A DNA stretch of 63,564 nt, filler included, from Schmidtea polychroa (Eukaryota), in assembly GCA_044892525.1 (NCBI GenBank). It is 5 parts of 3 records of this genome, joined end to end, with 100 filler letters (N's around TTAATTAATTAA, not from the genome) between each part and the next. Parts side by side here need not be neighbours in the genome. Positions count along the whole stretch, not along the records: positions 1 to 19,568 come from CM097886.1; 4 more parts are not named here. One strand, given 5' to 3'. The first letter of the stretch is position 1. The number at the start of each line of letters is the position of its first letter. Under the pieces are notes generated by a model, which saw nothing but the letters and a program-made list of their open reading frames with translations, did no database searches and was not told where the DNA came from. This document shows positions 12,882 through 13,303 of this stretch, one piece after another. Position numbers and translations under genes: made by a program.

Positions 12882-12893
12882 GCCCGGATAGCT
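12882..12893 (-). promoter_or_regulatory. Putative non-canonical primer-binding site complementary to tRNA-Lys(UUU) nt 1-12
   Basis: Plus strand GCCCGGATAGCT equals the 5' 12 nt of metazoan tRNA-Lys(UUU), from recall. It abuts the LTR end with zero gap. Confidence 0.65.
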
Positions 12894-13303
12894 TGTGGTT
12901 AAATTCAGCGCGCCGTCAAAAGACTCTCTCCGAATTATTCCCCGAAAATCCTTCTGTGAATTATTCCCCGTAAATTACTTCTTAAAATCCAAAAGAAACA
13001 CAATTCAGCGACAATACGTTTATTAACAATTAAATATTATAACAATTATATTTGAATCGATACATTATTAATTTCCAACATTAAACTTAAGAAAGAACCC
13101 GATCGTATGAGTCGCCGCGGTGGCAACCATTAAAACAAACATCAGAATAATAATATTACATATATTTTAACATTTTAATTCCAACTTTCTCATAATGCTC
13201 CCTTGCACTCTACAACACAAAATATTAAACTTTTCAACATTCGAACTATAATCAGTTTTAAAACATTTAATTATAACAAACTTAAATTACCCTTTTACTC
13301 ACA
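12894..13303 (-). repeat. 5' LTR (410 bp)
   Basis: Minus strand TGTGAGTAAA...TTTAACCACA with imperfect terminal inverted repeats (TGTGAGTAAA vs TGTGGTTAAA). Contains AATAAA and an internal direct repeat GAATTATTCCCCG (2 copies). Confidence 0.9.

Follow-up and report, generated by a model that had tools for sequence, protein, structure and literature searches.

A putative primer-binding site complementary to tRNA 5' ends in a lineage of invertebrate LTR retrotransposons

The element and its surroundings

The window, by which we mean the whole 63,564-nt stretch of Schmidtea polychroa DNA that was analysed, contains on its minus strand an LTR retrotransposon of 4.4 kb, in which gag and pol are both open and the catalytic motifs are present. 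The 5' LTR (12894..13303) is 410 nt long, has TG...CA ends, and begins on the sense strand with TGTGAGTAAA at position 13303; the five bases outside it (13304..13308), AATCG on the sense strand, are likely the 5-bp target, the second copy of which is missing. Between the LTR and gag lie a 12-nt putative primer-binding site (PBS; 12882..12893) and an AT-rich leader of 132 nt (12750..12881), which is longer than that of most relatives, the first ATG being found 0 to 16 nt past the site in 49 of the 55 loci described below. The gag frame (11931..12749) encodes two CCHC zinc knuckles with the spacing CX2CX4HX4C and matches the Pfam zinc knuckle. It overlaps pol (9307..11997), and the overlap contains a slippery heptamer, GGGAAAC (11979..11985), at which a -1 frameshift is predicted. 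Heptamers were also seen near the gag-pol junction of relatives (GGGAAAC in 25 and AAAAAAC in 11 of 54 loci), which suggests that a -1 frameshift is conserved across the lineage; in some relatives, gag and pol are fused. The 3' LTR (8890..9274) is shortened and is immediately preceded by a polypurine tract (PPT), GGGGGGA (9275..9281). In six of the related loci (L008, L018, L021, L026, L028, and L062), a GA(G/T)ATC-like motif lies a few bases ahead of the corresponding tract. The two LTRs of the window copy are 99.2% identical across 385 nt, and the element is a young LTR retrotransposon.

The pol product, 896 aa from stop to stop, contains in order a protease (DTG), a reverse transcriptase (RT; YVDD), a DUF7047 stretch, an RNase H, and an integrase (DD35E), all recognized by Pfam, and this PR-RT-RH-IN order behind gag, together with the TG...CA LTRs and the PPT before the 3' LTR, is of the Ty3/gypsy type. 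As read from the sequence, all four acidic residues of the RNase H are kept (D484, E520, D544, and D603). In an AlphaFold model (mean pLDDT 84.7), the DUF7047 stretch folds into thumb-like helices that lead directly into one RNase H, and a tether is absent; the idea of DUF7047 as a retrovirus-like tether was therefore rejected. The best structural matches were retrovirus-, caulimovirus-, and errantivirus-like proteins, all with only 9-19% identity, and the lineage is therefore deeply diverged from the named viruses.

Several minor observations concern the ends of the element. Truncation at 8890 removed the end of U5, the target duplication, and 4 nt of flank. Contigs of runs X1 and X2 contain the junction of this truncated 3' LTR; run X6 has a contig of the empty site, in which 8889 is joined to 13303. 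Near the end of U5, 8 nt form an inverted complement to sequence just outside the 5' LTR (13304-13315), which may be due to chance or may be a trace of aberrant integration. In run X1, an LTR-only contig had about the same depth (351) as internal contigs (300-336), contig depth not being a copy number, and contigs of run X2 run from pol through the LTR into gag (window 8901-13303). These patterns could result from tandem arrays or from one-LTR circles; two related loci, L021 and L022, were assembled as tandems too.

Elsewhere in the window, an exon of the host on the plus strand (5814-6437) codes for an rRNA methyltransferase domain of the SpoU family. Two long open reading frames on the minus strand (49960-52289), one with a weak match to the Spin-doc zinc finger, are broken by assembly gaps and are probably the remnant of a DNA transposon. 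A tandem duplication of 520 nt with 99.8% identity (56013-57052) is possibly an assembly artefact, and a 155-nt GC-rich tandem repeat lies at 61260-61925. The window contains no tRNA genes or Rfam matches.

The site adjoining the 5' LTR and its conservation

An earlier note on this DNA had claimed that a 12-mer follows the 5' LTR without a gap, and this is what the sequence contains. The 12-mer, GCCCGGATAGCT on the plus strand at 12882-12893, occurs once in the window even when one mismatch is allowed (0.04 occurrences expected from shuffling), and the sense strand reads ...TTTAACCACA directly followed by AGCTATCCGGGC, the LTR ending in ...AACCACA and the spacer being 0. Because the final 26 nt of U5 and the target duplication on the right-hand side are missing from the 3' LTR, the window copy alone cannot fix the LTR end, and no flank at 12894 was found in the contigs aligned to the window, so that the end is not fixed for the window family either. 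The boundary was placed at 12894 because it agrees with the TG...CA rule and with the end of the LTR repeat in L026, L028, L062, and L066, that is, in all four informative two-LTR loci, where the repeat ends exactly one base before AGCTA. L015 and L043, whose repeat breaks off before it reaches the site, are uninformative on the boundary. The target duplication, expected at 4-6 bp for a Ty3/gypsy-type element, is an exact 5 bp in L062, agrees at 4 of 5 positions in L026, and is absent in L028. The concern that other copies might place the end of U5 elsewhere is thus answered by the two-LTR relatives, in which the LTR ends at the site.

Protein searches returned 269 and 632 relatives. Those that could be named belong to Hydra, crustaceans, a bryozoan, a gastropod, and an acanthocephalan, with the sponge Sycon as a more distant source; a group of sequences (P0525-P0550), several of them from Sycon ciliatum, has a DUF7047-type RT and a longer spacer between RNase H and integrase. 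At the DNA level, 68 related loci with 34-53% protein identity were collected; the best 80 of 152 matches in metagenomes yielded 63 of them, and genome bins supplied the other 5. A site of the type CA|AGCTA-NNNN-GGC precedes gag in 54 of these 68 loci and is conserved in kind across the family. Of the 14 loci without it, 12 do not contain the 5' region of gag with upstream DNA; the remaining two are L009, with a 7-nt partial match near the contig end, and L001, which has just 101 nt ahead of the gag match and no site. For the 50 loci (49 relatives and the window) that include the 5' end of gag and DNA ahead of it, an unguided count of 6-mers in this upstream DNA put AAGCTA first, with 47 loci containing it; the sites of L023 and L051 were added by inspection. 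As a background, a looser form of the site pattern occurred 13 times in 345 kb of pol sequence.

Conservation within the site is uneven. In 49 distinct junctions, which were selected by the motif at the cost of 1 of 50 testable loci, the bases opposite tRNA nt 8-11 are invariant (49 of 49), while those opposite nt 4-7 of the acceptor stem are variable. The commonest base has a share of 96% at site position 12 and of 53% at position 13, which has no tRNA base opposite it, and conservation, as far as these junctions tell, stops where the tRNA begins. Among the differences listed for four runs, none falls inside the site, and neighbouring positions in the LTR and the leader vary. The site lies outside the LTR, is absent after the 3' LTR, and adjoins a conserved ACA at the LTR end. 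Comparison of the sequences therefore confirmed the feature as real and as lineage-wide.

It had also been noted that no TGG-type PBS follows the LTR, and this holds for the window copy and beyond it: none of the 55 loci (54 relatives and the window) has a TGG within the 10 nt that follow the LTR. A TGG-type site for the same tRNA was found in one locus only, far from the LTR.

tRNA identity of the site variants

The site takes 15 forms over the 55 loci. In a comparison with published human, zebrafish, and Triops tRNA sequences, 18 of the 55 sites proved to be exact complements of animal tRNA starts (13 of Phe, 3 of Lys-UUU, and 2 of Lys-CUU). The window site belongs to the second type: tRNA-Lys3 and the zebrafish tRF-Lys(TTT) start with GCCCGGATAGCTCAG (primer list of PMC2175372 and Table 1 of PMC4688932), and AGCTATCCGGGC, found in three loci including the window, is the complement of nt 1-12, as had been proposed. 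Similarly, AGCTATTTCGGC (13 loci) complements nt 1-12 of human tRNA-Phe (PMC2175372, PMC4688932), and AGCTAGCCGGGC (2 loci) equals the end of a probe to the 5' half of Triops tRNA-Lys(CUU) (PMC4501094). The probability of a fixed 12-mer is about 6e-8 per site, and exact matches to three separate tRNAs were obtained, in keeping with the earlier judgement that chance is an unlikely cause.

With 13 Phe sites against 3 for Lys-UUU and 2 for Lys-CUU, the variants indicate that Lys is a minority state and that the site is not Lys-specific. The original proposal, priming by the 5' end of tRNA-Lys, is supported with the refinement that the feature is lineage-wide and not confined to Lys, most sites being of the Phe type or unassigned. 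For 37 of the 55 sites, the variant was linked to no animal tRNA. The complements of several of these correspond to tRNA nt 1-12 in contigs of a viral collection, with mixed isotypes, and for the two commonest (13 and 7 loci) tRNA starts were found solely in such contigs, mostly Thr and some Phe; L051, for instance, reads CGCTACCGAGGC, the complement of a viral-contig tRNA start (L202). Because these searches fixed most letters beforehand, the viral-contig starts support the tRNA reading only weakly. Eukaryote-type tRNA-Phe starts in viral contigs matched 1 of the 15 variants, no relatives of pol were found in viral contigs, and the bacterial genome bins that hold four related contigs contained no tRNA start matching the sites of those elements. 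Pairing is imperfect at tRNA nt 1-2 in four loci (L012, L048, L050, and L052).

The distribution of variants is what a host-supplied template predicts with respect to assemblies. With families of less than 70% identity counted as distinct, a variant was shared by 21 of 66 family pairs from the same assembly and by 148 of 1290 pairs across assemblies (permutation p 0.0026, with pairs that are non-independent and kinship uncorrected). A quick RT tree of 51 of the 55 loci has the Lys-UUU type in three separate places.

Possible priming by a tRNA 5' end

The position of the site, its conservation, and its complementarity to published tRNA starts are direct observations, and it is probable that the site is a PBS on which a short piece from the 5' end of a tRNA, about 12 nt in length, starts minus-strand synthesis. 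Tf1 likewise has a short primer, an 11-nt 5'-terminal piece of RNA that the RNase H of the element cuts loose. In the window lineage, a 12-bp RNA duplex would form as the site invades the acceptor stem together with the D-stem's 5' strand, the tRNA would be cut at or just inside the edge of this duplex at U12, and the freed 3'-OH would face the terminal A of the LTR and be extended by RT. Since tRNA C13 stands opposite this A, pairing stops at nt 12 and the remainder of the tRNA beyond it would have to be removed. The cut may fall after nt 10, 11, or 12, all of which are compatible with the sequence; a cut 1-2 nt inside the duplex would be possible if integrase trims a spacer, and is allowed because a variable 1-2 nt separates the PPT and TG in relatives. 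Granted such priming, there is about an even chance that the cutter is the element RNase H, acting as in Tf1 but in trans, and a slightly smaller one that a host 5' tRNA fragment is trimmed back to the duplex; the former is narrowly favoured because the geometry equals that of Tf1. The predicted energies of the duplex (-18.7 to -25.5 kcal/mol) compare favourably with those of the displaced 7-bp acceptor helix (-8.8 to -15.0 kcal/mol), in a comparison that leaves out the D-stem, tertiary contacts, and base modifications. The predicted exposure of the site does not exceed that of its flanks (unpaired, 0.37 compared with 0.41), and neither a second tRNA-pairing box in the LTR or leader nor self-dimers of the PBS were found. 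Furthermore, RT may copy the primer through to its 5' end during plus-strand synthesis, and such run-off copying would explain why the site ends exactly at tRNA nt 1 and why tRNA types switch as whole blocks. Recopying of the primer into the PBS is a property of retroviruses and not of Ty1 and Ty3 (PMC7472051).

Among the alternatives, it is unlikely that the tRNA 5' end or fragment is bound for another purpose, such as gag translation, packaging, dimerisation, or silencing, while priming takes another route. An intact tRNA in such a pairing has no 3'-OH to offer, and the gag ATG lies within 16 nt of the site in the 49 loci mentioned above, two points in favour of this reading; yet the site lies exactly where the end of a primer is required, with a spacer of 0, it stays at the LTR in the window copy, where the ATG is 132 nt off, and no TGG site, self-primer, or splice-made primer that could take its place was found in the loci examined. 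That the primer is some other RNA with a matching 3' end, such as a host small RNA, the transcript of a tRNA-derived SINE, or an RNA made by the element, seems quite unlikely. This possibility draws on the 37 sites that have no assigned animal tRNA, and on a tRNA reading that consists of sequence matches only, but it is at odds with the exact agreement with published starts of three different tRNAs, with variation that falls mainly at acceptor-stem positions and ends at tRNA nt 1, and with the absence of the full complement from all 49 loci in which it was sought. It is very unlikely that the motif is a signal for protein binding or integrase attachment with a chance likeness to tRNA starts, for, despite adjoining the conserved ACA, it is outside the LTR and missing after the 3' LTR, and chance would have to produce the three tRNA matches at the rate given above. 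Finally, self-priming by the 5' end of the transcript as in Tf1, either directly or after splicing within the LTR, shares the geometry of a short site with no spacer and no TGG but appears largely refuted and is scarcely probable at all, because, over 49 loci with 149-450 nt upstream (long LTRs being perhaps partly covered), the longest Watson-Crick run averaged 4.0 compared with 4.2 in shuffled sequences and reached at most 7 pairs, below the Tf1/sushi criterion of at least 10 nt of PBS complement in the 5' LTR, and a GT...AG joint could build a primer in none of them, which extends the earlier finding that the reverse complement of the site does not occur in the LTR of the window copy.

Priming by a tRNA 5' end would differ from each of the known systems. 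A survey of plant elements lists three types of LTR primer, namely the 3' end of a whole tRNA, a tRNA half that results from a cut within the anticodon stem, and a self-primer (PMC6317226). The self-primed elements, Tf1/Tf2, Tf1/sushi, and Tcn1 (PMC6317226, PMC5006619), resemble the window lineage in their short LTR-adjacent site without TGG and in their use, proposed here for the window lineage, of the 5'-terminal stretch of an RNA freed by a cut; however, their primer is the element's own transcript, whereas the window lineage matches a host tRNA. In half-molecule priming, described for Drosophila copia, Ty5, Osser, Bryco, Bianca, fungal Copia, and Helenus (PMC6317226, PMC10886601), the 5' part of a cut tRNA primes, as is proposed here, but those sites pair with the anticodon arm (its loop in fungal Copia; PMC10886601) and are reported, in the portions of these sources available, only in Ty1/copia lineages, in which integrase precedes RT, unlike in the window element. 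Canonical Ty3/gypsy and retroviral elements share with the window lineage the domain order, TG...CA LTRs, and a PPT, in L062 also a 5-bp duplication, and probably the use of a host tRNA, but their PBS pairs with the 3' CCA end, the opposite end of the tRNA.

The Troyka/Kuafuorterviruses and Odin are likewise deeply diverged LTR lineages without env, mostly from aquatic animals (PMC12440569, PMC11673190, PMC9040795). The former were rejected as the home of the window element, since they have CG...CG ends, a 3-bp duplication, IADD/VADD/LADD, and CX2CX8-10HX4C, compared with TG...CA, YVDD, and CX2CX4HX4C here, and so was Odin, which requires a tether and a second RNase H, compared with a thumb leading into one RNase H in the window model. 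The use of tRNA 5' ends by Troyka or Ajax was checked and found unsupported. The Cigr-1 clade and MolGy1-16, compared by description only, are also invertebrate Gypsy clades (PMC6238403), and the available main text of that paper on Cigr-1 and MolGy mentions neither a PBS nor a tRNA. The window lineage may already have been named as one of these clades. Cigr-1 is about 4.2 kb long and has a tRNA-Lys PBS. As the earlier note had supposed, no description of a PBS matching tRNA nt 1-12, or of an LTR lineage primed in this way, was found in the full-text literature, as far as the accessible parts of its sources go (PMC3587641, PMC12859917, and PMC5006619 included; Repbase, GyDB, the Cigr-1 paper, and subscription journals being outside this scope), and the accessible parts of PMC2774666, PMC9040795, and PMC12440569 gave no match for PBS or tRNA. 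Among the papers listed for six of the site sequences, none had a title concerned with the priming of retrotransposons. There is a minor but appreciable chance that the site has been noted somewhere before.

If true, priming by a tRNA 5' end would be a fourth type beside the three listed in PMC6317226, in a wide lineage whose named relatives include Hydra, crustaceans, and, more distantly, a sponge. Two published annotation methods would score the lineage as lacking a PBS, since the tRNA search in PMC13524379 is limited to tRNA 3' ends and that in PMC6317226 adds self-primers only. It would bridge the self-priming of Tf1 and tRNA priming, would raise the question of whether an element RNase H can cut a host tRNA, and would mean that very short 5' tRNA fragments act directly, as primers or as blockers; the known inhibitors among tRNA fragments are 3' fragments (PMC7472051). 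In its fullest form, the proposal is a tentative one: a pan-invertebrate DUF7047 lineage, from sponge to crustaceans, might capture the 5' end of a host tRNA, cut it to 10-12 nt with its own RNase H, rewrite the site by run-off copying, and thereby switch tRNAs in one step. The canonical type of PBS is carried by the same host, as follows from a second, decayed gypsy-type element on the plus strand of the window (37787-40800), which retains fragments of gag, protease, RT, and integrase and has an ordinary TGG-starting primer site at about 37787.
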